From assembly GCA_000437915.1 (NCBI GenBank), contig FR901000.1:119244-183243 (forward strand): a DNA stretch of 64,000 bases, read 5' to 3'. Origin of the DNA: Subdoligranulum sp. CAG:314. Its GTDB lineage: Bacteria > Bacillota > Clostridia > Christensenellales > CAG-314. Within the stretch, counting starts at the first letter, position 1, and every line of letters begins with the position of its first letter. The notes beneath the pieces were generated by a model that was given only the letters and a program-made list of their open reading frames with translations, was not told where the DNA came from and searched no databases. This document shows, in pieces, positions 2,756-64,000 of this stretch. The position numbers were made by a program, and so were the translations under genes.

Positions 2756-2846
2756 ATATTTCCACCCCGAAAAATTTCCTTTTATGTTAAAATATCAATA
2801 CTTTCACATGATACAAAAAAATTGTGAAAAAATCAACTGTTTTTTA

Positions 2847-2875
2847 TTGACATAATCCGACAAAGATGTTAAAAT
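2847..2875 (+). promoter_or_regulatory. Sigma-A-type promoter of the LRR lipoprotein gene
   Basis: TTGACA (2847-2852), 17-nt spacer, TAAAAT (2870-2875). Confidence 0.55.
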
Positions 2876-2878
2876 CGG

Positions 2879-2900
2879 TACAATGATTGTATTTTACAAT
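2879..2900. promoter_or_regulatory. Candidate operator with three TACAAT/ATTGTA half-sites
   Basis: TACAAT-G-ATTGTA-TTT-TACAAT lies immediately downstream of the -10 box, in the intergenic region shared with the divergent MarR gene. Confidence 0.4.
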
Positions 2901-2935
2901 CAAAAATTTTAATCCATAGGAGGTAACAACGGATT

Positions 2936-29578: not shown

Positions 29579-30119
29579 CGTAGAACCATCCGCCTCCCAC
29601 GTCTCGCCCCAAATCGCAGGTGTAAACCCACTCTATCACGTCGCCGTCTTTGAGCACATACTTGCTGCACCCGTAATTGGGAAATTGTCCGTTCACCTTG
29701 TACATCCACCCCGAAAGCGGTCCGCAGGAAAATTCGTAAAGAAAATTTATGCCTCTTATGTACACGCTTCCGAATGCGTTTTCGTTGGCGCCCTGATATT
29801 CCATCTGAATTTTGTTGTGTCTGACCGCTCTGTTCAAAATATCGTAAACCGTGTCGTCTTTCCGCAAAACATATTCGGTTTGTTCAAGGATAATCCCGTC
29901 GGACGGAACGTATTTTTCAAAACGCAGGCTTTCGTCCAGGTCGTCCCAGTTGTCGAGTATTGTCCCGCATTCTATGCTTAAAAACACGGTTTCGCTTTCC
30001 GGCGTTATATCGTCAAGATGCGTAAGATAGTAGTCCTCGACAGACTGAAATTTAGTGCCTGCGCAAAGAATCGCAATGAGAAACGCCACTATTGCGACAG
30101 CCAGAAAATCCTTTTTCAT
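29565..30119 (-). CDS. DUF4430 (transcobalamin C-terminal-like) domain protein, membrane-anchored
   Basis: 184 aa. N-terminal hydrophobic anchor, then LSGWMYKVNGQFPNYGCSKYVLKDGDVIEWVYTCDLGRDVGG, the characteristic DUF4430 signature. Confidence 0.75.
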   Translation of the reverse strand: MKKDFLAVAIVAFLIAILCAGTKFQSVEDYYLTHLDDITPESETVFLSIECGTILDNWDDLDESLRFEKYVPSDGIILEQTEYVLRKDDTVYDILNRAVRHNKIQMEYQGANENAFGSVYIRGINFLYEFSCGPLSGWMYKVNGQFPNYGCSKYVLKDGDVIEWVYTCDLGRDVGGGWFYDEGV

Positions 30120-33867: not shown

Positions 33868-33869
33868 GC

Positions 33870-36293: not shown

Positions 36294-36384
36294 GAGTTCA
36301 TCTCCTTTTATCATTTTTTCCGCCTGTCGGCGGACGTTTGCGGAACGCAGGCAATACGAACGGGGACGGTATTTAAACCGCTGC

Positions 36385-36413
36385 AAAAAAAATCTCCCGA
36401 TTGTCCCGGGAGA
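36385..36413 (-). terminator. Riboswitch expression-platform terminator
   Basis: Minus strand reads TCTCCCG-GGACAAT-CGGGAGA followed by T8, 92 nt upstream of the first start codon. Confidence 0.75.
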
Positions 36414-36479
36414 GTCTGCATACACGACAAAAGGAAACATGAAAAATGCTCCTTGATGCTGTGGCTGACATCCTTCTTT

Positions 36480-36633
36480 CGCCCAAGAATGTATTACCTT
36501 TTGGCAATAAGGCAGGTCTCCCGACTTATGGCGACTGTGCGCCAAATACGGTAATGGCTGTTGCGACGGATTCTCACCGCTCTTCCCGCTGTTGACCGCT
36601 TGACAAGCGTCGTTGCTTGACTTCGGAACCAAA
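36480..36633 (-). promoter_or_regulatory. Cobalamin (B12) riboswitch aptamer
   Basis: Minus strand reads GGTTCC...AACAGCGGGAAGAGCGGTGAGAATCCGTCGCAACAGCC...GCCATAAGTCGGGAGACCTGCC. This matches the conserved GGGAA/GGTGnnAATCC core and the B12 box (AGTCGGGAGACCTGCC). Confidence 0.8.
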
Positions 36634-36650
36634 TTGCTTATTCAATTGAG

Positions 36651-48651: not shown

Positions 48652-51600
48652 TCAGGATATGCCGCTAACAACACCGCCGTACTCCCCTGTTTTCTCCATA
48701 AAAACGCTCAGCTCTATCGTTTCGCGCTTGTTGTTCATATACTCATACATTTCGTCTCCGAAAACCGTGACAAAGTAATAAGTCGTACCTGCTTTCATAT
48801 TTGAGTAGCTCAGACCGTTGGCGGGATTGATGCTCAAAAATCTAGTCGTCGAGGGATGATAAGAAGGACCGTTGGCATTCTGCCAATAAGGTCTGTCGTT
48901 GCCGGGCACGTAAATGTAAGTCAGTCCGTTGAGCATTGCCCTTCCCCTGTCCACCGTGAACAAGGGGCAGTTAACCGTACCATCCCTTTGCTCAAGCTCC
49001 AACGAATTGAAATATCCCCAATAGGAAAAATGAGGCATATACATCCCGTCCTCGGCGGGCGTGAACTGAAAGAAAACCCTTTCATAGGTTCTAACGTCCA
49101 AAGTCCTTGTCTCGGCGGTGACGATGTAAGCGTTGTTCCAATTTCTGCCGTCCTCCAAAACCTCGTCCCCCCACCTGGCGTAGAGATTGACCACGCCGTT
49201 AGCGTCGGGGGCGCCGAAGTAAGGATAGCTTTCCACCCTTGAGCCCCAGTCGCCGTCAACGCTTCCGTCCTTGGTGTAATAGCCCTGAAGATGCTTGTTT
49301 CCCTCGCCTTTCCAAACGGTAACTGGCATATCCCACAGCACGGCGACGTTTTCAACGTCGAAAATGCTGTTGCCGCCGTCGGTGTGGAAGCTGTACGTAA
49401 CCTTTTCCTGATTGTCGGTAGCTATCCTTCCCGCATAGGTGTCTCCGCAGTAATCGTAAAATACCTCGAAATACGCCTTGTAGCTGCCCGCGGGCACAAT
49501 AAATTTACTCTCCAATCCGGGACCGAAATAATTCATCGTCAAGTCTATAGTCGAGATTTTGTAACCCGTCATAAATATTTGGTATATGCTGTAAATACCC
49601 TCCAGCTGATTGACGTATCGGTTTATATATTCCATTTTCGGAGGCTCGACGGAGTTGAACGTCACGGTTTTGAGGTAAAGAGCATAGTAGAACGCTCCGT
49701 TGGCAATCTCCACGAGTGTGGAGGGCAGCACAAGCTCCTCCAAGCTGCTCTGAAAAGCAAAAGCCTCGTCTCCTATGTACTGCACGCCCTCGGGTATGAC
49801 AAGTTTTTTCAAGCTTGAAAACAGCTTCACCAAATTTGCGGGGTCTGCGTTTTCCGTCATTGCCTTGGGCGCTATCTGAGTCGTCACATAGTCGCCCGTA
49901 TCGGGGAAAACAAGCTCCTCGTCGCCCATGCAGAAAGGTAGATTGATTAGCCTCAGCTCCCTGTCGTTCAACTTTTCGTAAATAAAGCCGTCAAAGGTGA
50001 TATACTTGCCCGTATTGCCCTCGATTTTAGGGTTGTAAAGCCCGGAAAAAGGACGCTTTTCGATTGTTTCGATTGTGTCGGGGAAAAGTATTTCGTTGTA
50101 ATTCATGAAGGATACTATACAACTTGTTTCCAGCGCTTTGAGATTGCTGCCGTTGGGCCACTCCAACCCTTTGAGCGACGGGGTTCTGATTGAGCCCCCG
50201 CACAGTCTTTCCAGCGTGGAGGGCAGGCTGATGTACTCCGTGCCGTCCGTCACTTCATATCCCCACACAACATTGCCGTCACCCTTTTCGCCTGTTTCGG
50301 TAAAAGCTACCTCGCCCGTGTTCAAAAAGCCGCTTGGCAGCTCCCTCACTCCCTCGGGGACGACAACGCGCTTTAATGCGTCGGAGGTGAAGCACGCCCC
50401 GAGAATCGGTTTGAAAGCCGTCACTCCGTCCGGCACGACATACTCGCTCGCGGATGACGCGGGCGTGTGAAGAATAAACGAGTCTCCCCCGTCGGGGCCC
50501 GTGCCGAGTTCTATAATCGCGTCGTTTCGCCTCTCTATGAGAGTAAGCTCGTCCCACATCAGCTCGTAGCCCCCTTTCATCTTGGCTCCGCCGAGACCGC
50601 AGGTAGACATCAGACGCCAAATGTCGTCGTCGACATACAGTCTTGCAAGATTGACGTCGGCTAGGGCTTCCGGCGCAATGTACTCCAAGCCCTCAGGCAG
50701 GGTGAAAGCAGTTACCTGCCTGAAATAGGAAAACGCTCCGCTTTCAAAACGCTTGACCTTTCCCTTGAATATAACCTGCTTTGCGCTTTCTCCGCCGATA
50801 TTAGTAAGACTCTCCCTGTCTCCTTCGATTGTGAGGATTTCCACACCGCCGGGGACAATATTTGCGACAAGATTTGTCACGTGTTCGGGCAAAGTAAACT
50901 TGGCGCTATTGAGATTTATATAATGAATTGTGTCCCGAGCGGCGTTGTACATCAAGTCATTGCCGAATGTGTCCTTTTCAAAGTGAAAATACGGATTGCT
51001 TTCGTCCAAATAAATCTGCCGAAATCCTATTTGAGGATGAGTCGTGTACAAGTGTCCCCCCTCGATGTTTTTAAGGCTTGCGGGCAGATAAAATTCTACA
51101 TTGTCGCTGTAAGCGTAGCCGTTTGTTTCTTTTCTTGTACATGAAGCGCCTCCAAAACCTTTCTCTTCTATCGTTTCCAGACCGAGAAAATAAATTCTGT
51201 CAAAAAGACCGCCTGAAAAGGCATAATCCCCTACTGTCTTGTAGCACTCGGGCACAAGCAGCTCGTCAAGTCTGAATTTTGTGTAGAAACTGTCAAACGC
51301 GTAACCCAAAATTTTTGTTATCGGTTTGCCGTTGTACTCGACGGGCAGCGACTTGGAGCCGGTCAAGAGAGGCTGCGACAGTGACTCGACAGTATTTTCG
51401 TACACGTAATTTTCCGCCAGTCCGTAAGTACCGTCTTCGAGCAGGGTGTATTTGAAGTAATGCTCGGGTATGACAGTGCTTTCGTCAAACACGTACTTTG
51501 CAGTAAAGGTGACGTCCTCCGTCAGAGGCGTCTCCAAGTCCGAATCCCAACCGTCGTAAAGATAAAAGTTTTCGTATTTGTGGAAAAACACGGGCACCTT

Positions 51601-52188
51601 GCTCTCGGGCACCGCCTCCCCTCTTTTGACCTGCACGACCTCCTGCTCGTTTTTGGACGGGTTGACAAAGGTTGCCAGCACGACGTCCTCGGCGGGCAGC
51701 TCCTTTTCGGCAAACTTGGGCCACAGCTCCAAATTTTTGGTGATTTTCGTGTCTTTAAGAAACGCCTGCGTTTTTCCCGCGTTGGTGTACCAGCCGACAA
51801 ACACCTGCCCCTCGGGCGGAGTGGGGTCGGCGGTTTTGAGCGTGCCGTTGTACTCGACCTTTTCCGCAGGCAGATTCGTTTCCCTGAACGTCACGGTATA
51901 GGTCTTGATGTTGAATTTGGCGTAAACCGTCGTGTCCTTTTGTATGGGCTTGGAAAAGTCGAATTCCTTTGTCAGGGCCTCGTCCTCGTACCACCCTACA
52001 AAGTCGTAGCCGACCTTGTTGGGAGCTACGGCGGGACGGACGGCGCACTCGTCTTTAAGCACCGTCTGAGTCGCGACTTCCGCACCCGAAAAGCTCACGG
52101 TAAACTCCTTTGTCTTTCCGCACGCCATGAGCGCCAGACTCATTGCCAAAGCCAGCAGCATCGCCAAAAGCAGCTTTGTTCTTTTCAT
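48652..52188 (-). CDS. Large surface lipoprotein with Flg_new repeats and BspA-type LRRs (paralog)
   Basis: 1178 aa. Lipobox LMAC-GK. The C-terminal module (..GYYTKDGSVDGDWGSRV....VNLYARWG....FFQFTPAEDGMYM) closely parallels that of 2936-6406. Confidence 0.8.
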   Translation of the reverse strand: MKRTKLLLAMLLALAMSLALMACGKTKEFTVSFSGAEVATQTVLKDECAVRPAVAPNKVGYDFVGWYEDEALTKEFDFSKPIQKDTTVYAKFNIKTYTVTFRETNLPAEKVEYNGTLKTADPTPPEGQVFVGWYTNAGKTQAFLKDTKITKNLELWPKFAEKELPAEDVVLATFVNPSKNEQEVVQVKRGEAVPESKVPVFFHKYENFYLYDGWDSDLETPLTEDVTFTAKYVFDESTVIPEHYFKYTLLEDGTYGLAENYVYENTVESLSQPLLTGSKSLPVEYNGKPITKILGYAFDSFYTKFRLDELLVPECYKTVGDYAFSGGLFDRIYFLGLETIEEKGFGGASCTRKETNGYAYSDNVEFYLPASLKNIEGGHLYTTHPQIGFRQIYLDESNPYFHFEKDTFGNDLMYNAARDTIHYINLNSAKFTLPEHVTNLVANIVPGGVEILTIEGDRESLTNIGGESAKQVIFKGKVKRFESGAFSYFRQVTAFTLPEGLEYIAPEALADVNLARLYVDDDIWRLMSTCGLGGAKMKGGYELMWDELTLIERRNDAIIELGTGPDGGDSFILHTPASSASEYVVPDGVTAFKPILGACFTSDALKRVVVPEGVRELPSGFLNTGEVAFTETGEKGDGNVVWGYEVTDGTEYISLPSTLERLCGGSIRTPSLKGLEWPNGSNLKALETSCIVSFMNYNEILFPDTIETIEKRPFSGLYNPKIEGNTGKYITFDGFIYEKLNDRELRLINLPFCMGDEELVFPDTGDYVTTQIAPKAMTENADPANLVKLFSSLKKLVIPEGVQYIGDEAFAFQSSLEELVLPSTLVEIANGAFYYALYLKTVTFNSVEPPKMEYINRYVNQLEGIYSIYQIFMTGYKISTIDLTMNYFGPGLESKFIVPAGSYKAYFEVFYDYCGDTYAGRIATDNQEKVTYSFHTDGGNSIFDVENVAVLWDMPVTVWKGEGNKHLQGYYTKDGSVDGDWGSRVESYPYFGAPDANGVVNLYARWGDEVLEDGRNWNNAYIVTAETRTLDVRTYERVFFQFTPAEDGMYMPHFSYWGYFNSLELEQRDGTVNCPLFTVDRGRAMLNGLTYIYVPGNDRPYWQNANGPSYHPSTTRFLSINPANGLSYSNMKAGTTYYFVTVFGDEMYEYMNNKRETIELSVFMEKTGEYGGVVSGIS

Positions 52189-52486
52189 TTTTCTTTTTCC
52201 TCCGTTTTCTGTTTTTTAGCCTATTTTCAAATACTTTATCTTTGAGTAAAAACTCAACGATATTTGTATTTAATTTCAGCCTATACCAAATATACTTAAA
52301 TTATTTTGTCATGTCAAGCGTTTTTGTCGAGATATGTAAAATTTCTTTCGGATTTTTTTAAACAGAGAGCTTTCTTCAAATCCAACCGAAGGCGCCTTTG
52401 ACGGGCGGCGGCTGTTTTTGCGCAAGCCGTTGAAGTCCGAAATAAAAATTTTCACACGGAGCAAAGGATTTTTTGTTTTTCCGCAG

Positions 52487-52515
52487 TTGACAAAGTCGGC
52501 AAAAAAGCGTATTAT
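52487..52515 (+). promoter_or_regulatory. Near-consensus sigma-A promoter of the lysine fermentation operon
   Basis: TTGACA (52487-52492), 17-nt spacer, TATTAT (52510-52515). Confidence 0.65.
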
Positions 52516-52540
52516 ATCAATGGAAAAGTACAGTTTAATA

Positions 52541-52694
52541 CTTGTTAGAGGAGCGGTTCGGCAAGGTAAGCGGGCGCGCGTTTGAGACGCGGTGGCGTCG
52601 ATGCGTCCCGAACAATGTGCCGCCGCCGAAAGCGCGTTTGTCCACCGCAACGCGGCTTGGAGGTCGGGGTCAGTCGTCGGCTTCTGTCATAAGT
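52541..52694 (+). promoter_or_regulatory. Probable lysine riboswitch (L-box)
   Basis: Conserved L-box landmarks appear in order: TAGAGGAGCG (consensus AGAGGCGC), GCCGCCGAAAG (CGCCGAAG), CTTGGAGG (CUGG) and TTCTGTCATAAG (ACUGUCA). A closing P1 helix forms between ACTTGT and ATAAGT. Internal GC-rich helices are plausible but were not fully folded by eye. Confidence 0.6.
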
Positions 52695-52704
52695 TTTTTA
52701 TGAT

Positions 52705-52738
52705 GCGCTAAGGTTTTTTTGCCTTAACGCGTTTTTTT
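52705..52738 (+). terminator. Leader terminator between the L-box and kal
   Basis: GCGCTAAGG-T7-(G)CCTTAACGC (one mismatch) followed by T7, 27 nt before the kal start. Confidence 0.65.
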
Positions 52739-52764
52739 ATTTTATCCGACGGAGGAAAACGTAT

Positions 52765-53163
52765 ATGAGCAAAATTAAAGCGACAATTCGTTTGAGAATG
52801 AGCGCGCACGACGCGCATTACGGCGGCAATCTGGTGGACGGGGCGCGTATGCTGGGACTTTTCGGCGACGTTGCAACGGAGCTTCTTATCCGTCACGACG
52901 GCGACGAGGGGCTTTTCAGAGCTTACGACAGCGTGGAGTTTTTGGCGCCCGTCTTTGCGGGAGACTACATAGAAGCCGAGGGCGAAATCACGGAAACAGG
53001 AAAAACCTCCCGCAAAATGAAGTTCGAGGCGCGCAAGGTCATTGCTCCCCGCCCCGATTTAAACGACTCCGCCTGCGACGTGCTTGACAAGCCCGTCGTC
53101 GTTTGCCGGGCTTCGGGCACCTGCGTGGTGCCGCTCGACAAGCAGAGAAATGCAAACCGTTAA
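52765..53163 (+). CDS. kal: 3-aminobutyryl-CoA ammonia-lyase (hot-dog fold)
   Basis: 132 aa. [40 protein letters not shown] is the typical Kal N-terminus. First gene of the lysine fermentation cluster. Confidence 0.8.
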
Positions 53164-53178: not shown

Positions 53179-54006
53179 TTGGAAAAGCTGATTATCACCG
53201 CGGCAATCTGCGGCGCAGAGGTAACAAAGGAGCACAATCCCGCAGTCCCCTACACCGTCAGGGAAATCGCGCGGGAAGCCAAGTCCGCCTACGACGCGGG
53301 GGCGGCAATCATCCACCTGCACGTGAGAGAGGACGACGGCACGCCCACTCAGAGCGCGGAGCGGTTCAAGCTATGCATGGACGCAATCAGAGAGGCGTGC
53401 CCCGACGTAATAATTCAGCCGTCCACGGGCGGCGCGGTGGGCATGAGCGACGAGGAGCGCTTGCAGCCCCTCGCCCTAAACCCCGAAACGGCTACGCTGG
53501 ACTGCGGCACCTGCAATTTCGGCGGGGACGACATCTTTGTCAATACGGAAAACACCATAATAAATTTCGCACGGCAGATGACGGAAAAAAACGTCAAGCC
53601 GGAGTGCGAGGTGTTTGACAAGGGCATGGTGGACATGACGTTGAGGCTTGCGGCAAAGGGCGTCATTCCACAGCCGCTGCACTTCAACTTCGTCATGGGC
53701 GTCAACGGCGGAATTGCCGCAACCCACACCAACCTGCTGTTTCTTGTCAACAGCCTGCCGCAAAACGCCACCTTCACCGTTTCGGGCACGGGACGGGCGC
53801 AGCTGCCCATGGCGGTCATGTCAATGCTGCTCGGCGGACACGTCCGAGTGGGCTTTGAGGACAACGTATATCTGTCAAAGGGCAGGCTGTTGAAAAGCAA
53901 CGGCGAAATGGTGGAAAAAATCGTGCGCATTGCCAAAGAGCTGGGGCGGGATATCGCCGCGCCCGACGAGGCGCGCGAATTACTCGGCATACCTAAAAAA
54001 TTTTAA
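53179..54006 (+). CDS. kce: 3-keto-5-aminohexanoate cleavage enzyme (BKACE/DUF849)
   Basis: 275 aa with a TTG start. IITAAICGAE....NPAVPYT..EIA.EA..AY.AGAAIIHLHVR motif. Confidence 0.85.
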   Translation: MEKLIITAAICGAEVTKEHNPAVPYTVREIAREAKSAYDAGAAIIHLHVREDDGTPTQSAERFKLCMDAIREACPDVIIQPSTGGAVGMSDEERLQPLALNPETATLDCGTCNFGGDDIFVNTENTIINFARQMTEKNVKPECEVFDKGMVDMTLRLAAKGVIPQPLHFNFVMGVNGGIAATHTNLLFLVNSLPQNATFTVSGTGRAQLPMAVMSMLLGGHVRVGFEDNVYLSKGRLLKSNGEMVEKIVRIAKELGRDIAAPDEARELLGIPKKF

Positions 54007-54028: not shown

Positions 54029-55069
54029 ATGGAAATCAAGGGAAACAAATACGGAACTCACCGCGTTATACAGCCCAAGGGCGTGCTCACGCAGGCGGCG
54101 CTGAAAATCGACAACGGCTTCGACACGGTTTACTCCAACGAAATAGTCTGCGACGTGACAAGCCTAAACATAGACTCCGCCTCTTTTACTCAGATAGAAA
54201 ACGAGTGCGGCGGCGACGCGGAAAAAATCGCAAGACGCATAGAACAGATTGTCGCCGAGCGCGGCAAAATGCAAAACCCCGTCACGGGCAGCGGCGGTAT
54301 GTTTATCGGCAGAGTCGCGCACATAGGCAAGGATTTGACCGACACGGGACTCAAAGTCGGAGACAAAATCGCGTCTCTCGTGTCCCTCTCCCTCACGCCG
54401 CTCAAAATCGAAAAAATACTTGCCGTTCACCCCGAAATCGACCGCGTGGACGTGGTTGCCAAAGCCGCGCTGTTTGAAAGCGGAATTTACGCAAAGCTGC
54501 CCGACGACATGCCCGAAAACCTCGCGCTTGCGGCGCTGGACGTTGCGGGCGCGCCCGCGCAGACGGCAAGGCTGGTCAAGGAGGGCGACTCGGTGCTGGT
54601 GCTCGGCGCGGCGGGCAAATCGGGCGTTCTTGTTTGCTACGAAGCCAAAAAACGCGCAGGCGCAAAGGGCAACGTGGTTGGCGTCGTCATCTGCGAGGAG
54701 GACAAAAAGAAGGTCGAAAAGCTGGGGATAGTTGACAAGGCAATTGTCGCGTCGGCTACCGAGCCCGTCGAAATCCTCGAAAAAGCCGTCGCCGCAAACG
54801 GCGGAAAAGAGTTCGACCTGTCAATAAACTGCGTCAACGTCCCCAACACGGAAATGGCGGCTATTCTGCCAGTAAAGGAAAACGGCACCGTTTACTTCTT
54901 TTCCATGGCGACAAGCTTCACAAAGTCCGCTCTCGGCGCGGAGGGCGTGGGCAAGGACGTCAATATGATTATCGGCAACGGCTACTGCAAGGGACACGCC
55001 GAGCTGACGCTCAACGAGCTGCGCGAAAGCAAAGCGCTGCGCGAGCTTTTTGAAAAAACCTACGCTTGA
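54029..55069 (+). CDS. kdd: L-erythro-3,5-diaminohexanoate dehydrogenase
   Basis: 346 aa from MEIKGNKYGTHRVIQPKGVL. Rossmann motif LGAAGKSG. Confidence 0.8.
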   Translation: MEIKGNKYGTHRVIQPKGVLTQAALKIDNGFDTVYSNEIVCDVTSLNIDSASFTQIENECGGDAEKIARRIEQIVAERGKMQNPVTGSGGMFIGRVAHIGKDLTDTGLKVGDKIASLVSLSLTPLKIEKILAVHPEIDRVDVVAKAALFESGIYAKLPDDMPENLALAALDVAGAPAQTARLVKEGDSVLVLGAAGKSGVLVCYEAKKRAGAKGNVVGVVICEEDKKKVEKLGIVDKAIVASATEPVEILEKAVAANGGKEFDLSINCVNVPNTEMAAILPVKENGTVYFFSMATSFTKSALGAEGVGKDVNMIIGNGYCKGHAELTLNELRESKALRELFEKTYA

Positions 55070-55085
55070 CAAGGACGGTAAAATT

Positions 55086-56336
55086 ATGGAAACAAAAAAC
55101 AAGCTTTTCGCCGACGTTTCCGCAAAGGACTGGAACGATTGGCGCTGGCAGGTTCGCAACCGCATAGAAACGCTTGACGACCTGAAAAAATACATAAAGC
55201 TCACCCCCGAGGAGGAGGAAGGCGTCGCGCGCTGTCTCGAAAGCCTGCGCATGGCAATCACCCCCTACTACCTCTCGCTGATAGATTTGGAAAATCCGTT
55301 CGACCCCGTGCGCCTGCAAGCAGTGCCCACCGCCAAAGAGCTGCACCGCTCCGACGCCGACTTGCTCGACCCTCTGCACGAGGATACCGACAGCCCCGTG
55401 CCGGGACTTACGCACCGCTATCCCGACCGCGTGCTCATACTCGTCACCGACCAATGCTCCATGTACTGCCGCCACTGCACGCGCAGACGCTTTGCGGGAC
55501 AAAAGGACTGCGAGGTGCAGACAAACAGAATAGACAAATATATCGAGTACGTTGCGGCGCACCCCGAAGTGCGCGACGTGCTGCTCTCGGGCGGCGACGC
55601 GCTGCTGCTTTCCGACGAAAAGCTCGAAAGCATAATCAGCCGCCTGCGCGCCATTCCGCACGTGGAAATTATCCGCATAGGCAGCCGCACTCCCGTCGTC
55701 ATGCCCCAACGCATAACGCCCGAACTGTGCGCCATGCTGAAAAAATATCATCCCGTGTGGCTGAACACCCACTTCAACCATCCAAACGAAATCACTCCCG
55801 ATTCACGTCGCGCCTGCGAAATGCTTGCTGACGCGGGTATACCTCTCGGAAACCAAAGCGTGCTGCTTGCAGGCGTCAACGACTGCGTTCACGTCATGAA
55901 ACGGCTGGTTCACGAGCTGGTCAAAATAAGAGTGAGACCTTATTACATTTATCAGTGCGACCTGAGCATGGGCTTGGAGCACTTCCGCACGCCCGTTTCC
56001 AAGGGAATCGAAATCATAGAAGCTCTGCGCGGACACACAAGCGGCTTTGCGGTGCCCACCTTCGTCGTGGACGCGCCCGGCGGCGGCGGCAAAATCCCCG
56101 TCATGCCGGAGTATCTCATATCCATGTCCCCCGACAAGGTAATCCTGCGCAATTTCGAGGGCGTCATCACTACGTACAGTCAGCCCGTTCATTACGAAAA
56201 CGTGTGCCGCTGCCCCGACTGCACCGCAAAAGAAAAGAAAAAACTCATAGGAGTTGCGGGGCTGGAACAAGGTCAGGCTCTCTCCCTCGAACCGACGGGA
56301 CTTTTGAGAAACGACAGACACGTAAAGGAGGGCTGA
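55086..56336 (+). CDS. kamA: L-lysine 2,3-aminomutase (radical SAM)
   Basis: 416 aa from METKNKLF. W.DWRWQ..NRI N-terminus. CSMYCRHCTRRR radical-SAM cluster motif. Confidence 0.9.
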   Translation: METKNKLFADVSAKDWNDWRWQVRNRIETLDDLKKYIKLTPEEEEGVARCLESLRMAITPYYLSLIDLENPFDPVRLQAVPTAKELHRSDADLLDPLHEDTDSPVPGLTHRYPDRVLILVTDQCSMYCRHCTRRRFAGQKDCEVQTNRIDKYIEYVAAHPEVRDVLLSGGDALLLSDEKLESIISRLRAIPHVEIIRIGSRTPVVMPQRITPELCAMLKKYHPVWLNTHFNHPNEITPDSRRACEMLADAGIPLGNQSVLLAGVNDCVHVMKRLVHELVKIRVRPYYIYQCDLSMGLEHFRTPVSKGIEIIEALRGHTSGFAVPTFVVDAPGGGGKIPVMPEYLISMSPDKVILRNFEGVITTYSQPVHYENVCRCPDCTAKEKKKLIGVAGLEQGQALSLEPTGLLRNDRHVKEG

Positions 56337-57914
56337 ATGAGAAACAAGCTCGGACTCGACAAAGACGTAATTGCAAGGGCGCGGCATTTTGCCCGCAATA
56401 TTGCCGCGGACACGCAAAGCTATATCGACCTTCACACCACAGTCGCCGTTGAGCGCACCGTTTTGAGGCTGCTCGGCGTAAACGGTGTGGACGCAAACGA
56501 CGTGCCGATGCCCAACGTGGTTGTGGAGCACATGACAAACAGAGGGCTGCTCGCGCACGGCGCGGCAATCGCCGTCGGCAGCGCGGTTTACGATACGGGA
56601 AAAGCTCCGCAAAAAATCGCCGAGGAAATTTCGGCGGGGACAATCGACCTGGCCAAAATCCCCCTGCTCGACGCGGAAAAAGCGCGCGTCGCGCTTGCGC
56701 CCCATGTCGTAAAATCCGTCAGAAAAATCAACGGCAACGTAAGAAAACGCAAAAAATTTCTTAAAGAATACGGAGACAAAACAGGTCCCTATCTTTACAT
56801 AATAGTCGCGACGGGCAACATATACGAGGACATCGTTCAGGCGAAAGCCGCCGCCAAGCAGGGCGCGGACATCATCGCGGTGATAAGAACCACAGGGCAG
56901 AGTCTGTTGGACTACGTCCCCTACGGCGCGACGACGGAAGGCTTCGGCGGAACCTACGCCACACAGGAAAATTTCCGTCTCATGCGCGCCGCTCTGGACG
57001 AGGTGGGAGCGGAGCAAAAGCGCTACATCCGTCTGTGCAACTACTGTTCGGGGCTGTGTATGCCTGAAATAGCCGCAATGGGCGCTCTGGAAAGACTGGA
57101 CGTAATGCTAAACGACGCGCTTTACGGAATTTTATTCCGCGACATAAACATGAAGCGCACCATAGTAGACCAATTCTTTTCGCGCGTCATCAACGGATAT
57201 GCGGGAGTCATTATCAACACGGGCGAGGACAACTATCTGACCACCGCCGACGCCGTAAAGGAAGCGCACACCGTGCTCGCCTCGCAGTTTCTCAACGAGC
57301 AGTTTGCCGCCTTTGCAGGCATCCCCGAGGAGCAGATGGGTTTGGGGCACGCCTTTGAAATCGACCCCTCCGTCAAAAACGGCTTTTTGATGGAGCTTGC
57401 TCAGGCGCAGATGGCGCGTGAGATTTTTCCCAAAGCGCCCCTCAAATATATGCCTCCGACAAAGTACATGACGGGAAACATCTTCCGCGGGCACATACAG
57501 GACGCGCTGTTCAACATCGTTACGATAACGACAAACCAAAAGCTGCATTTGCTCGGTATGATGACGGAAGCGTTGCACACGCCTTTTATGTCAGACCGCG
57601 CGCTTGCAATAGAAAACGCTCAGTACGTTTTCAACACCATGGCGGATTTGGGAAAAGAAATCGAGTTCAAAAAAGGCGGATTTATGCAGCAACGCGCGCA
57701 AAGCGTGCTTGCCAAAACCGTTTCGCTGTTGGAAGAAATCGAGCGCAACACGCTGTTTGTCTCCCTCTCGCGCGGAGTGTTTGCGGACATAAAACGTCCG
57801 CCCGACGGCGGCAAGGGGCTTGACGGAGTCGTCGCAAAGGAAGACGACTATTTCAACCCCTTCATCGAAATTTTCCTCAAAAACAAAACGGCGGACAAGG
57901 AGGAAGCGAAATGA
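56337..57914 (+). CDS. kamD: Lysine 5,6-aminomutase alpha subunit
   Basis: 525 aa, directly abutting the kamA stop. Family-typical N-terminus (LGLD...I..AR..A..IA.D). Confidence 0.85.
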   Translation: MRNKLGLDKDVIARARHFARNIAADTQSYIDLHTTVAVERTVLRLLGVNGVDANDVPMPNVVVEHMTNRGLLAHGAAIAVGSAVYDTGKAPQKIAEEISAGTIDLAKIPLLDAEKARVALAPHVVKSVRKINGNVRKRKKFLKEYGDKTGPYLYIIVATGNIYEDIVQAKAAAKQGADIIAVIRTTGQSLLDYVPYGATTEGFGGTYATQENFRLMRAALDEVGAEQKRYIRLCNYCSGLCMPEIAAMGALERLDVMLNDALYGILFRDINMKRTIVDQFFSRVINGYAGVIINTGEDNYLTTADAVKEAHTVLASQFLNEQFAAFAGIPEEQMGLGHAFEIDPSVKNGFLMELAQAQMAREIFPKAPLKYMPPTKYMTGNIFRGHIQDALFNIVTITTNQKLHLLGMMTEALHTPFMSDRALAIENAQYVFNTMADLGKEIEFKKGGFMQQRAQSVLAKTVSLLEEIERNTLFVSLSRGVFADIKRPPDGGKGLDGVVAKEDDYFNPFIEIFLKNKTADKEEAK

Positions 57915-58699
57915 GCGGCGGACTTTACAATACCTCCAACAAAAAATTCGACACCACTCTCAACCTCAAAGAGCTGCGCCCCTACGGCGACACAATGAAC
58001 GACGGAAAGGTTCAGATGAGCTTCACTCTGCCCGTAAAAAACGACGACAAGGGGCAGGAGGCGGCGATTCAGCTTGCCAAAAAAATGGGACTCAACGAGC
58101 CTTCGGTGGCGTGCGCCAAGACGTTGGACGAGGAATTTACCTTTTACATCGTTTACGGCGAATGCGCGTATTCCGTCGACTACACCTCCATTTCCGTGCA
58201 GACGGTGGACAACGACGTCATGAGCATGGAGGAAACGGACGAATTTATCAGAGAAAATTTCGGCCGCAAGCTTGTGGTTGTAGGCGCTTCCACGGGGACC
58301 GACGCGCACACCGTCGGTATAGACGCCATTATGAACCGCAAGGGCTTTGCAGGACACTACGGACTCGAACGCTACGATATGATAGAGGCATACAATATGG
58401 GCAGTCAGGTGCCCAACGAGGAATTTATCGCCAAAGCCAAAGAACTCAAAGCCGACATACTGCTTGTAAGTCAGACTGTCACGCAAAAGGGAATACATAT
58501 CGAAAATCTAACCAATCTCGTGGAGCTTATGGAGGCGGAGCACCTGCGCGACAAGGTGGTGCTTTGCTGCGGCGGCGCAAGAATCACGCACGAGCTTGCA
58601 AAGGAGTTGGGCTACGACGCGGGCTTCGGTCCGGGCAAATATGCCGACGACGTAATTTCTTTCGCCGTGAACGAAATGCTTAAACGCGGCATGAAATAA
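57911..58699 (+). CDS. kamE: Lysine 5,6-aminomutase beta subunit (cobalamin-binding)
   Basis: 262 aa. ATGA overlap with kamD. B12-binding DxHxxG motif (TDAHTVGID). Confidence 0.85.
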   Translation: MSGGLYNTSNKKFDTTLNLKELRPYGDTMNDGKVQMSFTLPVKNDDKGQEAAIQLAKKMGLNEPSVACAKTLDEEFTFYIVYGECAYSVDYTSISVQTVDNDVMSMEETDEFIRENFGRKLVVVGASTGTDAHTVGIDAIMNRKGFAGHYGLERYDMIEAYNMGSQVPNEEFIAKAKELKADILLVSQTVTQKGIHIENLTNLVELMEAEHLRDKVVLCCGGARITHELAKELGYDAGFGPGKYADDVISFAVNEMLKRGMK

Positions 58700-58716: not shown

Positions 58717-59379
58717 ATGAAAAACAAACTCACAACGCCCGACGAATTTGCCGCCCTGATAAACGATGGCGACGAAATCATGTACGGCGGCTTTCTCGGA
58801 GTGGGCACCCCCGACTCCATTGTGGACGCAATTATCAGAAAGGGAGTCAAGGACCTGACGGTCATAGGCAACGACACCTCAGTTCCCAACCGCGGCATAG
58901 CCAAGCTGATTGAGCGCAAAATGGTCAAAAAGGTCATAACCTCGCACGTGGGCACCAACCCGCAGACAGGCGCCCAAATGACGGCAGGCACCCTCGAGGT
59001 GTGTCTCGTGCCGCAGGGCACGCTGATAGAACGAATCAGAGCGGGCGGCTACGGATTGGGCGGCATACTTACGCCTACCGGAGTCGGCACCGAGGTGGCA
59101 AACGGCAAACAGGTGCTCAACGTAAACGGCAAGGATTATCTTCTCGAACTCCCCCTGCGCGCGAGGATAGGCATCATACGCGGCTCCGTGGTGGACGAAC
59201 ACGGAAACGTGTATTACAAGGGCACGACCCGCAACTTCAATCCGTTGGTCGCAATGGCTTGCGACATTGTCGTTGTGGAAGCCGAAAAGCTGCTTAAAAC
59301 GGGAGAAATCGAGCCCGAACACATTATGACTCCGGGTATTCTCGTGGACTACATAGTTGTCGAAGGAGAACAAAAATGA
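58717..59379 (+). CDS. atoD: Acetoacetate/3-oxoacid CoA-transferase subunit A
   Basis: 220 aa. DGD.IM.GGF.G.G.P N-terminus. Confidence 0.85.
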   Translation: MKNKLTTPDEFAALINDGDEIMYGGFLGVGTPDSIVDAIIRKGVKDLTVIGNDTSVPNRGIAKLIERKMVKKVITSHVGTNPQTGAQMTAGTLEVCLVPQGTLIERIRAGGYGLGGILTPTGVGTEVANGKQVLNVNGKDYLLELPLRARIGIIRGSVVDEHGNVYYKGTTRNFNPLVAMACDIVVVEAEKLLKTGEIEPEHIMTPGILVDYIVVEGEQK

Positions 59380-60026
59380 GCGACGTCAAGGAAATCATCG
59401 CAAGACGCGCCGCGCGCGAGCTGCACGACGGCGACATAGTAAATCTCGGTATCGGACTGCCCACATTGGTTACCGATTACCTCGACTCCGACATAGAGGT
59501 CATTCTGCAATCGGAAAACGGCATCTTGGGCATGAAGGGCGCGGCGGAGCCGCACGAAATCAATCCCGACGTAACAAACGCGGGAGGCTCGCACGTGAGC
59601 GTTCATAAATTCGCAAGCTTTTTCGACTCCGCGACCTCTTTCGGTTTCATCAGGGGCGGGCACGTGGACGTGACAATCCTCGGAGCCTTGCAGGTGGACA
59701 GGGACGGCTCTTTGGCAAGCCACATAGTGCCGGGCAAAATGGTGCCGGGCATGGGCGGAGCAATGGACCTTGTGGCAGGCGCGAAAAACGTGATTGTCGT
59801 CATGACACACACCGCCAAGGGCGACGCTCCCAAAATACTTGAAAAATGCACTCTGCCTCTCACGGCTTACAAAAAGGTGAACCGCATTATAACCGAGCTT
59901 GCCGTCATCGACGTAACGGCGGACGGACTTGTTTTGAGGGAAATAAACAAAAACACCACTGTGGAAGACGTTGTACGTCTGACCGAGGCAAAGCTCGTTA
60001 TCCCCGAAAATATCGGAACCTTTTGA
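59376..60026 (+). CDS. atoA: Acetoacetate/3-oxoacid CoA-transferase subunit B
   Basis: 216 aa. Catalytic SENG motif (LQSENGILG). ATGA overlap with subunit A. Confidence 0.85.
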   Translation: MSDVKEIIARRAARELHDGDIVNLGIGLPTLVTDYLDSDIEVILQSENGILGMKGAAEPHEINPDVTNAGGSHVSVHKFASFFDSATSFGFIRGGHVDVTILGALQVDRDGSLASHIVPGKMVPGMGGAMDLVAGAKNVIVVMTHTAKGDAPKILEKCTLPLTAYKKVNRIITELAVIDVTADGLVLREINKNTTVEDVVRLTEAKLVIPENIGTF

Positions 60027-60103: not shown

Positions 60104-63100
60104 CTAACTTTGAGCTATGTACCAATCGCCGCCCTGTCCGTAAGTCACAAACAACGACACGAGACTTTGATTGTTGCCGCCGAGGAGGGCTCCCGCTCTC
60201 GTCACAATTTCCATCAGCTGCTGTCCGTCGGCAAGTTTGAATCCCTCTTGGAATGCCTTTAAAGTCACCGCGTTGCTGTTTCCGCCGTTTGCCAAAACCG
60301 CCGCCGCAAAGTCACTCCAAATGCTGTAAGCGCCGACGGGGAAACCGAACATTCCGTCGCTTATTCTTTGGTCCGTTCCGTCGGTATACCAGCCGTTCTC
60401 TCTCATGAAAGACACGCTGTTGTCGCCGTCCACAAAAGTAAGTTTAACTCTCGAAGTATTCACCGTCCCGTTGTCCCAATTTTGGTCGGCAGGTTTGAAC
60501 GCTATGGCAAAGTTGAATATCTCCTCGTTGTTATTCTTTTTGAGCATGCTGTAACCCAATTGGCTGACGCTTGCCTGCGCCGCGGATTTAAGCTGCGCCG
60601 CAAGCTGAGACGCGCCGTAAGCGGCGAACCAGGCTTCGTTGCCCGTTTTCCAGTTGTTGATTTTTGTGTTTTTTATGACAAGCTCGGGGTTTCTTTCGTT
60701 GCTGTTGTCGCAGTCTTCAATATGAATCGCCCCGCCGAAGCTATTGCCGAAATCGCAGCCGTCCAAAGTTATTTTCGCATTGCTCCATCCGTACAGACTG
60801 CTCTGCCAGTTGTTGTCGGCAAAACAATCGACAATAGATATTTCCCTCGTCACTTCGTTGGTGTCGAAATAATAAGCTATGCTGAAATTGTTGGCGTACA
60901 CGTTGTTCAGATTGGCGTCGGCGTCTCTCGTCAAAATACCGGCATGACCGCCGCTGTGCTCCGTTATATCCTCGTTGTTGCCCTTCATTTCGCTGTTGCC
61001 TATTATATGGAGGTTGTTGTAATTGGTGACTATCTCGGCGTTTTCAAACGCTCCTCCCCTCGCTCCGAAGTTGTAGACGACAAACAAACCGATTTGTATG
61101 GTCTGTACGTCCATATCGCCCATAGGTTTGCCCTGTCCCGGAGTTGTGTTTTCGGATTCCTGACTCCATTTGATTCTCGGAACAAGCAGATTGCCGCTTT
61201 CGTCCTTTTTGCTCGCGTCCACGGTGAAGAAGTTGCCGTTGAGCGTGAACGTGTCGTCGGCGGTGACAACTCTGTGGTAAACGCTGCCCTCGGGCTTGTC
61301 GGCGTCACTGTAAGGATGGTAGTTTATCGCCGTGCCGTCGGGATTTTTCTGGTCGGCGGCAAGTTCTGCCGTTATGTCGCCGTGCAGGTTGATAATGTGC
61401 ACGGAAGAGTCGTTAAAATTCTTTTTGAGTCCGTCGTGGTCATAGACGTTGACTCCGTCGTTGAGCTTGAACTCAATCCTGACGGTATAGTCGGCTGCAT
61501 TTTCGTTCTGTTCTCTTGTCAGATATTTGGGTCTGATTGACAGTATCAGAGCGGAATCGATGCTCGTGTCCGCGCTTTGCTTCCACACAAGACGATATTT
61601 GCCGTCCTCGCCTGCAACCACAGTGAAGTAATCCGACGCCTTTATCGGCGCGCCGTCTTTTCTTTCAAGGTCGATTGTCACTTCTATGGAAGCGGAGTCC
61701 TTGCTCAACCTGTCGTGATAGGTAATAAGCTCCGTATCCAAAATGAAATCGTTTCCGACACCCACGTTGTAGTCTCCTTCCTTTTTGAGGAAAATACTGT
61801 TTTCGCCCGTGTTGTCTCTGAACGCTTCGATGGTGTCGCCCGCAATAAAGGACGCCGCCTGCTCGACGAATTTGGCTTTTATCTCTACGCCGTTGGCAGT
61901 GGGTATTGTGATTGAGCCGACAGCCTTGTTTATCGTCAACGTATTGTCGTTGTCGCCGCTCACCGAATAATGCTCGTTGCCTTTTTCGGTAAAGGTGTAG
62001 GAATCGAAACGATAAGTAGTGCCGACAAAGAAAACGAATACCGTCGTCTGACTGTCGCCGCTGCCTATGCTCTCGCGTATGAGTTTTCCGTCGCCGTCCA
62101 CATAGGATATGTCGGAGTCAAACACGATTTCCGTCTCAAACTCTCCAAGCTCCGTCTTTCTTCCGTTTCCCTCCACAGCGGTAATAATAAGTTTGTGAGC
62201 GCCCGGCGTGAGCACGATCTGAGTGGTGTTGAGCGAATACGTCGCGACGCCTGCCGCTATTGTCGCTCGGGAAACTCTCGCGCTTTCGGAATCGAATCTC
62301 ACCTCGTAATAATTCACGTTGGAGTCGGCGTTCCACGTCCACACGAAATTGTCTCCGTTGATTTCATAGTCTCCTATTTCGGGCAGCGCCACGAACTGCG
62401 CGTAAACGCTGACATAGGAGCTTATCCCTTCGTTGACGAACGTATCGCTCAAAAACTCTGCCGCCACCGTCCAGAAAGAGAAAACGTACCCTGTTTTTGA
62501 AGGATTGGCGGGAAGAGTTACCTTTCCGTCCTCAACCTTGACGGCGGCAATCAACGTTCCGTCGACGTTTCTGAACCAGACGTAAGGCGCGTCGGCGTCA
62601 AACTCCAATTCAACCTCCTCAGACTTTATTCCGCCTGCAACGGTGTAAACCGTTACCGTATGCTTGCCTGCGGAAAGCGAACGCACAACGAAGCCCGTGC
62701 CGTCTGCCTGTGCAAAGTTGAGCATATTGTCCAGCTTGTACCAATATTCCTCTATGCCGTCTATTGCGTCCCAGCTTATCGTAGCGCTCGTTGCGTCGAA
62801 GGAAACGGATTGGGGAGCAGCGGGTCTTTCCGTCCACTGCGCGTAAACGACAATATACTCGGTTATATTGCTTGGGTTAAAAACATGTTCACCCGCCTCG
62901 TCCGTCGTCCATTTGTCAAACACGTAGCCTGTCTTTGTCGGCTCCTGCGGCAGAAGGATAGTTCCGGAGGAATTGACCACCTTGACGTCATACTCCTTGC
63001 CGTCCACCATAAAGGTCACGGTGACGGAGCTTTCGCCTATAACCGAATAAGTAAAGTTATATACGGCTTTTTCCGACCTGAGAGCCTCGCCGTCCACCTC

Positions 63101-64000
63101 GTTGACCGACATTGTCACAATTTCAACGGTATATTCCGTTCCGTCCGTCAAGCCTTGGGGCAGAGCAAAGGAATACGCGCTTTGTCCCTCGACAAAGTCG
63201 ATTGTCGTTTCCTTTCCGTCAAAACTCACGACAAAGCTTGCCGCGTCGCCGCCCGTATAATTCCACTCGATTGTCTGAGTATTGGCTACGTACCTCGGGG
63301 ACACGGTTTGGGGCAGCTTTTTGAACTGCGCGTATACGCTCAGACTCTCGACAAGGTCGCGGTTTTCAAAGGGAATGTTTCCCTCTTTGTCCGTCGTCCA
63401 GCCTGCAAAGGCATAGCCTTTTTCCGTCGGCTGGGCAGGCAATTTTACCTCGCCTTCGACAATTTCCACTATTCTCCACATTTCGTCGCCCACAAAGAAG
63501 CTGACGTACTGCTTGGGCTGCTCGCGGTTGACGTAAAAGGACAGGTTTGCCGTCTGTGAGGAATATTTGTTTTCCTTGGCGGTGACCTTAAAGGTGTGCG
63601 TGCCGTTGAGCATGTTTGCAGGCAGGTCGTAAGTCGTGTTTACGACAAGCTGCTCGGAGTTGTCGTCAAGCTGAATCATATAACCCGTTGCGCCGGAAAC
63701 CGCCGTCCAGGACACCGTATGTGTGTCGGGGTCGTAGGCAAGGTTGGCGGGCATGGCGGGCAGCCTGTGCCACTTTGCGTAAACGACTACGTTCTGCGTG
63801 TAGGTCTTGGTGGGGTCGAAAACATTTTGACCCTCTTTGTCCGTCGTCCAGGCTTCAAGAGCAAAGCCGTCCTTTGACAGTTCGAGCAGAGTCATGTCGG
63901 GTTTTATTTCCGCCTCGCCCACGGTTATGTATTCTTCAACGCTGTCGTCCGTTTCGTACTTGGGATTGATATCCTTGTAGATGACCTTTACAGCGGGGTC
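60104..64000 (-). CDS. Giant surface protein (5' end outside the window) with alternating Flg_new and FN3-like modules followed by a right-handed beta-helix-like domain
   Basis: The frame stays open to the window edge: I translated 63923-64000 as DPAVKVIYKDINPKYETDDSVEEYIT with no stop. The GTG at 63922 in the ORF track is therefore internal. The C-terminal part carries NN..I/..GG.I repeats (NLHIIGNS..., GGAIHIEDCD). Confidence 0.75.
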   Translation of the reverse strand, partial: DPAVKVIYKDINPKYETDDSVEEYITVGEAEIKPDMTLLELSKDGFALEAWTTDKEGQNVFDPTKTYTQNVVVYAKWHRLPAMPANLAYDPDTHTVSWTAVSGATGYMIQLDDNSEQLVVNTTYDLPANMLNGTHTFKVTAKENKYSSQTANLSFYVNREQPKQYVSFFVGDEMWRIVEIVEGEVKLPAQPTEKGYAFAGWTTDKEGNIPFENRDLVESLSVYAQFKKLPQTVSPRYVANTQTIEWNYTGGDAASFVVSFDGKETTIDFVEGQSAYSFALPQGLTDGTEYTVEIVTMSVNEVDGEALRSEKAVYNFTYSVIGESSVTVTFMVDGKEYDVKVVNSSGTILLPQEPTKTGYVFDKWTTDEAGEHVFNPSNITEYIVVYAQWTERPAAPQSVSFDATSATISWDAIDGIEEYWYKLDNMLNFAQADGTGFVVRSLSAGKHTVTVYTVAGGIKSEEVELEFDADAPYVWFRNVDGTLIAAVKVEDGKVTLPANPSKTGYVFSFWTVAAEFLSDTFVNEGISSYVSVYAQFVALPEIGDYEINGDNFVWTWNADSNVNYYEVRFDSESARVSRATIAAGVATYSLNTTQIVLTPGAHKLIITAVEGNGRKTELGEFETEIVFDSDISYVDGDGKLIRESIGSGDSQTTVFVFFVGTTYRFDSYTFTEKGNEHYSVSGDNDNTLTINKAVGSITIPTANGVEIKAKFVEQAASFIAGDTIEAFRDNTGENSIFLKKEGDYNVGVGNDFILDTELITYHDRLSKDSASIEVTIDLERKDGAPIKASDYFTVVAGEDGKYRLVWKQSADTSIDSALILSIRPKYLTREQNENAADYTVRIEFKLNDGVNVYDHDGLKKNFNDSSVHIINLHGDITAELAADQKNPDGTAINYHPYSDADKPEGSVYHRVVTADDTFTLNGNFFTVDASKKDESGNLLVPRIKWSQESENTTPGQGKPMGDMDVQTIQIGLFVVYNFGARGGAFENAEIVTNYNNLHIIGNSEMKGNNEDITEHSGGHAGILTRDADANLNNVYANNFSIAYYFDTNEVTREISIVDCFADNNWQSSLYGWSNAKITLDGCDFGNSFGGAIHIEDCDNSNERNPELVIKNTKINNWKTGNEAWFAAYGASQLAAQLKSAAQASVSQLGYSMLKKNNNEEIFNFAIAFKPADQNWDNGTVNTSRVKLTFVDGDNSVSFMRENGWYTDGTDQRISDGMFGFPVGAYSIWSDFAAAVLANGGNSNAVTLKAFQEGFKLADGQQLMEIVTRAGALLGGNNQSLVSLFVTYGQGGDWYIAQS

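Follow-up and report, generated by a model that had tools for sequence, protein, structure and literature searches.

In reviews and a 2024 paper, natural lysine riboswitches are described as repressors, and synthetic lysine-activated devices have been evolved from such OFF switches (PMC5651080, PMC10974012). Activating members have been predicted. According to section 8 of Barrick & Breaker (2007, PMC2258182), some glycine, adenine and lysine ON riboswitches bury pieces of the terminator stem, the lysine case being credited there to Rodionov (2003), and section 13 of Mukherjee et al. (2017, PMC5584792) describes lysine riboswitches upstream of kal/kce, called positively regulated, in C. sticklandii, F. 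nucleatum and two Thermoanaerobacter species. Here, we describe an element of this kind in a 64,000-nucleotide (nt) stretch of DNA from Subdoligranulum sp. CAG:314 (the window). The element is a lysine riboswitch upstream of kal, the first gene of an operon with the order kal-kce-kdd-kamA-kamD-kamE-atoD-atoA, whose eight genes make up a complete lysine fermentation pathway. From the modeled folds and their conservation we consider it highly probable that the element acts as a transcriptional ON switch for this lysine-to-butyrate/acetate fermentation operon. The literature already contains predicted lysine ON switches with such a design, some of them located before kal/kce, and the element in the window is a further example, not a new kind. 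An earlier reading of the sequence (the original prediction) had noted that comparative genomics predicted activating L boxes in a few anaerobes, which matches the passages of PMC2258182 (citing Rodionov 2003) and PMC5584792 named above.

The element belongs to the RF00168 family, with B. subtilis lysC and T. maritima asd as examples, and shares its five-way junction of helices P1–P5, its junction nucleotides and its L2–L3 kissing loop; P2 has candidate K-turn-like and loop-E-like motifs. Characterized members of the lysC/asd type are OFF switches of biosynthesis and transport genes that use an antiterminator, whereas the element in the window lacks an antiterminator, uses one and the same strand for the 3' side of P1 and for the terminator, and would control catabolism; its P1 is also much weaker, and its P2 has a 3-nt insertion. 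Compared to the predicted lysine ON riboswitches (Rodionov 2003 via PMC2258182; PMC5584792), it has the same aptamer, kal-first pathway and proposed terminator-burying logic, but it occurs in a different organism (Christensenellales), with one switch for the whole eight-gene pathway. The retrieved kal leaders of the Fusobacterium and Clostridium types have other, more complex platforms. The pbuE (ydhL) adenine riboswitch (Mandal & Breaker 2004, as presented in PMC2258182) likewise works as an ON switch without an antiterminator, its P1 3' strand doubling as the 5' portion of the terminator stem; however, it has a purine three-way-junction aptamer and another ligand and has been validated experimentally, whereas the element described here is predicted only. 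The glycine riboswitch of the gcvT operon is also an ON switch that senses an amino acid and, when this ligand is in excess, activates its breakdown, but it belongs to another aptamer family and usually has a tandem aptamer.

In Intestinimonas AF211, proteins of a kal-led lysine-utilization cluster are ≈10-fold induced by lysine, although Kal itself was undetected, and the paper does not mention a riboswitch (PMC4697335). Our literature search turned up no natural lysine ON switch that had been put to an experimental test. What the computations presented here show is the family membership of the aptamer, the mutually exclusive pairing, the conservation and covariation of the design, and the identity of the operon.

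Aptamer, terminator and switching logic

The features of the leader, from the promoter to the ribosome binding site of kal, are as follows.

52487–52492, plus strand: −35 hexamer TTGACA (promoter scan; conserved in the sister species)
52510–52515, plus strand: −10 hexamer TATTAT (promoter scan)
52538–52718, plus strand: lysine riboswitch aptamer (L box, RF00168), a five-helix junction (RF00168, model R1 and minimum free energy fold)
52543–52548, plus strand: P1 5' strand UGUUAG (Rfam alignment and pair list)
52553–52626, plus strand: P2 arm, with a loop-E-like internal loop, a K-turn-like motif and P2b with loop L2
52590–52595, plus strand: loop L2 CGGUGG, within P2b
52630–52658, plus strand: P3 hairpin, with loop L3 CCACCG at 52642–52647
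52659–52685, plus strand: P4 hairpin (fold and consensus structure)
52686–52704, plus strand: P5 hairpin GUCAUAA/UUAUGAU, arms 52686–52692 and 52698–52704 (Rfam alignment and fold)
52705–52713, plus strand: J5/1 (GCG) and P1 3' strand (CUAAGG), together the shared switching sequence GCGCUAAGG (alignment and fold)
52705–52730, plus strand: intrinsic terminator hairpin, −10.2 kcal/mol by RNAfold, nine base pairs with one C·A mismatch and a 6-nt loop
52732–52738, plus strand: U7 tract of the terminator, 27 nt before kal (read from the sequence)
52751–52755, plus strand: Shine-Dalgarno sequence GGAGG of kal, 9 nt before the ATG (read from the sequence)

The consensus promoter that had been proposed in front of the element was recovered by a promoter scan as a sigma-70-type TTGACA-17-TATTAT sequence (52487–52515) with 11 of 12 matches and a 17-nt spacer. 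Judging from its position, transcription would start at about 52522–52524, ≈15 nt 5' of the aptamer. A search with RF00168 bore out the assignment to the lysine riboswitch family: the model matched 52538–52718 over its full length (model positions 1–182) with 40.0 bits, against a gathering score of 30, and E-values of 4e-9 (601-nt region) and 4.3e-7 (both strands of the entire window, all 4227 families). Our own covariance model, R1, scored the same aptamer at 80.9 bits. A whole-window Rfam scan at gathering thresholds with the default speed filters did not call the lysine aptamer. This result is a filter miss, not an absence; an aptamer upstream of kal in another locus (L001:2698–2876, 58.7 bits) was also missed by the default filters, and permissive filters found both.

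When 52538–52718 was folded alone, helices P1–P5 all formed in the minimum free energy structure. The L-box landmarks AGAGGAGCG (52547–52555), GCCGAAAG (52625–52632), CTTGGAGG (52656–52663) and CTGTCA (52684–52689) lie where the original prediction had placed them, and the conserved junction nucleotides UAGAGG, GCCGAAAG, CUUGG, CUGUCA and GNGCUA are all present. In an alignment of 29 kal/kce-linked aptamers, the window keeps 25 of 25 invariant columns, and 36 of 46 consensus pairs of the P1–P5 structure show compensatory changes. The loops L2 (CGGUGG) and L3 (CCACCG) have a 6-base-pair kissing complementarity (−9.3 kcal/mol) that covaries between loci: among the 28 aptamers whose loop could be called, own-locus pairs averaged −5.3 kcal/mol compared to −2.0 kcal/mol for permuted pairs (0 of 5000 permutations). 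The motifs of P2 were assigned by reading the sequence against the consensus described in section 12 of PMC2258182. A K-turn-like GCGCG-UUU-GA opposite GA fits by eye; according to PMC2258182, the K-turn is absent from some members of the family. In the loop-E-like region the 5' strand AGGUA is present, and the 3' strand reads GAA-CAA-UGUG compared to the consensus GAAUGUG, a 3-nt CAA insertion that is also kept in the sister species. This unusual P2 variant and the catabolic gene context could point to a related compound as the ligand (β-lysine, 3,5-diaminohexanoate or an Amadori derivative of lysine) instead of L-lysine. We regard this as highly improbable, since the conserved junction nucleotides are unchanged and the deviations are confined to the peripheral P2 and P1.

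One part of the original prediction had to be replaced. TCATAA (52687–52692) had been taken as the P1 3' strand, and its pairing with TTATGA (52698–52703) as a switching platform, but the two are the arms of the P5 hairpin of the aptamer, and the platform was rejected. This reassignment follows alike from the Rfam alignment, from folding the isolated aptamer and from the consensus structure of the 29-sequence alignment, and they place the true P1 3' strand at 52708–52713 (CUAAGG). P1 thus consists of UGUUAG (52543–52548) and CUAAGG, with four Watson-Crick pairs, a G·G mismatch and one G·U pair. Most contigs of the window's own species have A, not T, at 52542, which adds one P1 pair.

The hairpin and T7 run (52732–52738) that had been noticed just before the kal ATG at 52765 form an intrinsic terminator with the stem GCG-C-UAAGGU/GCCUUA-A-CGC, followed by G and U7. 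A pattern-based scan of 52100–53000 called no terminator, because of the C·A mismatch in the stem, and energy-based folding was used for terminators instead. All nine nucleotides of the 5' arm (GCGCUAAGG, 52705–52713) belong to J5/1 and the P1 3' strand, inside the aptamer, and the 3' arm is CCUUAACGC (52722–52730). The closed aptamer and the terminator are therefore mutually exclusive. Accordingly, the aptamer alone folds with P1, and the full leader folds with the terminator instead. In a ligand-free series of growing transcripts, the probability of P1 was 0.41 when the 3' end had reached 52713, where the P1 3' strand is complete, and that of the terminator was 0.86 at 52724, with four nucleotides of its 3' arm transcribed, and 0.98 at 52730; in these models, the ligand-free default state is OFF. 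When the nine nucleotides of J5/1 and the P1 3' strand were masked, mimicking the bound aptamer, the terminator was lost and no other terminator formed before kal. The leader has no room for an antiterminator and no sequence resembling one.

Together, these features suggest the following mechanism. P2–P5 would fold first, with GCGCUAAGG (52705–52713) being the last segment of the aptamer to emerge from the polymerase. Lysine bound in the five-way junction would hold GCGCUAAGG in the closed aptamer, leaving CCUUAACGC (52722–52730) without a partner, so that no terminator forms and the polymerase continues past the U7 tract and transcribes kal. If lysine is missing, the weak P1 would fail, GCGCUAAGG would pair with CCUUAACGC, and the hairpin and U7 would stop transcription. 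The ligand-stabilized junction would have to hold the shared strand during ≈25 nt of synthesis, from 52713 to 52738. Lysine as the ligand, a kinetic decision during transcription and the direction of regulation in vivo are what we infer from this anatomy.

Every experimentally characterized lysine riboswitch that we found in the literature is an OFF switch (e.g., PMC5651080, PMC10974012), and the element might by analogy be an ordinary OFF switch in which lysine raises termination or prevents kal from being translated. Also in favor of this, masking to mimic the bound state gives a fold whose U tract can pair weakly (−6.6 kcal/mol) with GGAAAACG beside the Shine-Dalgarno sequence. An OFF switch of the terminator type, however, requires an antiterminator that is destroyed by P1, whereas this terminator takes its 5' arm from the P1 3' strand itself, and a second terminator before kal is absent. 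Repression of lysine fermentation when lysine is present would also make no physiological sense, and the kal-led operon of Intestinimonas is lysine-induced (PMC4697335). We consider an OFF switch extremely improbable.

Conservation among kal loci and in the sister species

Using Kal as a query, 80 kal loci were retrieved, one per species. Of these 80 loci from other species, 29 have an RF00168 match immediately before kal and in the same orientation: 28 by the gathering mode and L001 only with permissive filters, all 29 being confirmed with our own model. In the 80-locus set, no aptamer was found upstream of kal in Myxococcota, Bacteroidales, Thermotogota or Asgard loci, and the riboswitch was absent from all kal loci examined outside Bacillota and Fusobacteriota. 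In 17 of them (16 and L001), the first terminator, taken as the first hairpin followed by a U tract, has at least four of the six P1 3' nucleotides in its 5' arm; the window and the sister species also show this overlap. Such conservation of the wiring upstream of a catabolic gene is a further point against an ordinary OFF switch.

The P1 sequences vary between loci (e.g., CUAUUGAUAC, CUACGAAGAU, CUAUCCGGAA, CUGUUUUUGA, CUGGUCUUUA, CUAAGG), and the terminator 3' arms track them. The P1 3' strands pair with the 3' arm of their own terminator with a mean energy of −8.7 kcal/mol, compared to −3.2 kcal/mol for the arms of other loci (0 of 10,000 permutations). The ON-switch reading of the original prediction thus fits the anatomy, with the terminator 5' arm in the aptamer and no antiterminator, in a design that recurs with covariation upstream of kal. 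Antitermination could also be mainly steric, a “tug-of-war” in which the lysine-compacted aptamer, lying right next to the terminator, hinders the hairpin from folding inside the RNA exit channel, with strand sharing playing a secondary part. The pairing energy of the four-pair P1 is small, and a 2026 preprint (10.64898/2026.06.17.733018) reports that ligand-stabilized structures just upstream of terminators suppress termination without sequence overlap. Complete overlap (9/9 nt of the 5' arm) that covaries across loci is, however, the signature of strand competition, which makes a mainly steric mechanism unlikely, although the two effects are not mutually exclusive.

The sister species (L087–L096), whose Kal is 93–95% identical, gave a closer view of selection on the leader, the contigs of the window's own species being nearly identical. 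The aptamer core (52545–52713) is identical to that of the sister species at 164 of 169 positions (97%). In comparison, 40–46% of the fourfold degenerate sites in kal and kce differ, and the 286 nt upstream of the −35 hexamer are only ≈39% identical. The five differences in the core are one bulge base, one deletion in P2b and three changes from G·U to G-C or A-U; in P4, two substitutions keep the pairs (G·U to A-U and U·G to C-G). The P1 5' strand, the terminator loop and the terminator 3' arm differ between the window and the sister species, which has an 8-base-pair P1 and a perfect 9-base-pair terminator stem of −14.4 kcal/mol (L087:1271–1470). P1 and terminator strength thus shift jointly, both being weak in the window and strong in the sister species, as would be expected if selection acted on their balance.

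Several observations weigh against an ON switch. The aptamer in the window is the weakest of the set, with 40 bits compared to 52.8–94.9 in the other loci. It deviates from the family by the 3-nt insertion in the loop-E 3' strand of P2 and by its short P1, in which a G·G mismatch comes after just four Watson-Crick pairs; the low score is explained by the P2 insertion and the weak P1 together with the long, G+C-rich P2. The terminator is of moderate strength (−10.2 kcal/mol, with one mismatch in the stem) and escaped the simple scanner. On secondary-structure energy, the terminator state is favored over the P1-closed state by ≈14 kcal/mol, which means that read-through must draw on ligand and tertiary energy and on timing. 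The permutation tests did not correct for relatedness of the loci.

The low score, which is the lowest among the kal-linked aptamers, could together with the weak P1 and the P2 insertion indicate a decaying relic, with the hairpin serving as a constitutive attenuator or as the terminator of an upstream unit, and with the operon being controlled in some other way. Indeed, 51 of the 80 kal loci have no aptamer, showing that the operon can run without one. A relic is nevertheless very unlikely, given an aptamer core that is 97% identical to the sister species next to a ≈39% identical flank and 40–46% difference at neutral sites. The substitutions preserve the helices, the L2/L3 kissing complementarity is intact, and the neighboring gene upstream is transcribed divergently from the minus strand, leaving nothing on that side that would need this terminator. 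The interpretation as an ON switch is well supported by structure, covariation and selection.

Other leader architectures in relatives

A closing-strand motif (RUG-RWG-NRCUR), which runs from the P5 3' strand through J5/1 into the first part of the P1 3' strand, recurs 33–93 nt past the aptamer in nine relatives; the window has no such repeat. The repeat leaders are:

L001:2858–2966, L002:261–362, L003:2746–2870, L006:2781–2925, L008:2775–2900
L030:2816–2955, L033:2817–2926, L042:2830–2945, L077:2743–2905

L077 has two extra copies, giving three in total, and the other eight have two in total. The repeat in L042, ≈62 nt past the aptamer, came from reading the sequence and not from the motif scan. 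In L001, L002, L003, L006, L030, L033 and L077, every extra copy supplies the 5' arm for an additional strong terminator; in L042 the stretch after the second copy is just U-rich, and no terminator was called for the copy in L008. In the tails of the scanned loci, eight closing-strand motifs were observed and ≈0.15 were expected by chance (the extra copies of L001 and L042 were identified separately). The extra copies can pair with the P5 5' strand (4–6 pairs) and the P1 5' strand (4–7 pairs) of the aptamer in seven of the eight loci tabulated, including L033, which has a different P5; the exception is L001, in which the P5 5' strand was mislocated. The L042 aptamer is closed by the second copy in the Rfam model and by the first copy in our own model.

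These repeats raise the possibility, which we put forward tentatively, that the closing strand is a duplicable module, and that one aptamer core is re-closed by successive copies to give two or three serial lysine-dependent termination decisions. The window would then perhaps represent the minimal, one-module version, a suggestion that is just as tentative. Serial re-closure of a single aptamer core would explain the conservation of J5/1 in the extra copies and, if true, would give a sharper, less leaky response to lysine without a second aptamer. A simple relay, with the second copy capturing the 3' arm that the first terminator leaves free, was tried and found insufficient by itself, since the minimum free energy fold with the first copy masked still forms the second terminator. 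In our literature search we found no description of a repeated closing strand with a second terminator.

L008, an Eubacterium metagenome-assembled genome (MAG), has a second complete lysine aptamer between kal and kce (L008:3475–3690, 64.1 bits), with a terminator that is again built on the P1 3' strand. With this same wiring, the MAG would have separate ON switches for kal and kce.

In eight kal leaders of the Clostridium/Peptostreptococcaceae type (L017, L020, L025, L036, L047, L048, L054 and L056, at ≈2620–3000), the P1 3' strand lies in a long hairpin without a consistent U tract, and a separate canonical terminator is found 70–95 nt downstream. A cascade of alternative pairings from the P1 3' strand through segments A and B to the terminator was considered for these leaders and rejected, since both the free and the masked folds keep the downstream terminator. 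The eight were not counted as support for the ON logic. The Fusobacterium kal leaders (L063:2914–3000, L072:2899–3000) have ACCUCUAUUUUUUAU ≈50 nt past the aptamer, complementary to their own P1 5' strand and AGAGG core. This sequence would form a long-range anti-aptamer pairing ending in a U run, a third type of platform.

The operon, its surroundings and implications

The genes downstream of the riboswitch were assigned with protein family models.

52765–53163, plus strand: kal, 3-aminobutyryl-CoA ammonia lyase (NF052388, 202.5 bits, cut-off 160)
53179–54006, plus strand: kce, 3-keto-5-aminohexanoate cleavage enzyme (NF052387, 445 bits, cut-off 382)
54029–55069, plus strand: kdd, L-erythro-3,5-diaminohexanoate dehydrogenase (NF052381, 262.9 bits; start according to a 346-amino-acid gene call in identical contigs)
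55086–56336, plus strand: kamA, lysine 2,3-aminomutase (TIGR03820, 628 bits; ATG start chosen)
56337–57914, plus strand: kamD, lysine 5,6-aminomutase alpha subunit (NF052384, 902.6 bits)
57911–58699, plus strand: kamE, lysine 5,6-aminomutase beta subunit, B12-binding (NF052385, 404.6 bits)
58717–60026, plus strand: atoD-atoA-type CoA-transferase subunits A (58717–59379) and B (59376–60026) (TIGR02429, TIGR02428)

All operon genes except atoD passed the curated NCBIfam equivalog or subfamily cut-offs; atoD reached the subfamily model, its equivalog match of 297.1 bits being below the cut-off of 315. The family models thus identified all genes of the fermentation pathway, in agreement with the lysine-degrading operon that had been predicted downstream of the element. 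The exact Kal and Kce proteins have been deposited as “Subdoligranulum sp. CAG:314” while other sources assign the organism, as a MAG, to Christensenellales or Clostridiales. In public assemblies, 9130 indexed blocks contain the identical Kal sequence, and the protein occurs in thousands of metagenome assemblies, many of them from gut-derived samples, indicating that the organism is very common.

Kal is 82–92% identical among ten diverse homologs. Across Bacillota, Myxococcota, Bacteroidota, Thermotogota, Spirochaetota and an Asgard archaeon, it is 75–90% identical (e.g., Promethearchaeum syntrophicum, L076, and Archangium, L005 and L010). For an enzyme of 130 amino acids, this would reflect either unusually high conservation or wide horizontal spread.

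On both sides, the operon is flanked by genes for surface proteins on the minus strand. The divergent gene upstream of the leader (48652–52188, 1178 amino acids) has Listeria-Bacteroides repeats and BspA-type leucine-rich repeats (LRRs), and the gene on the other flank (60104–63922, 1272 amino acids) has Listeria-Bacteroides repeats. The upstream neighbor varies among contigs of the same species and is in some of them a 328-amino-acid LRR gene on the plus strand. Elsewhere in the window, a cobalamin riboswitch (RF00174, 38.8 bits; 36494–36648, minus strand) precedes a minus-strand cluster (29565–36470) that encodes a large surface protein with LRRs and Listeria-Bacteroides repeats, two DUF4430-containing proteins and one protein without a Pfam match. 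From its gene content, the cluster looks like a B12-controlled locus for B12 capture at the cell surface. The KamDE enzyme of the lysine operon needs adenosylcobalamin.

The leader of the kal operon would represent a clean, minimal natural lysine-activated riboswitch, with one aptamer, one terminator and complete strand sharing. Natural lysine ON switches have been predicted since 2003, and metabolic engineers have had to evolve synthetic lysine-ON devices from OFF switches (PMC5651080, PMC10974012). With the aptamers of both the window and L001 having been missed, the default Rfam filters probably undercount lysine riboswitches in G+C-rich Clostridia. For the organism, the element suggests that the production of butyrate from lysine by gut Clostridia may be gated directly by intracellular lysine, without a protein regulator, which would bear on models of protein fermentation in the colon.

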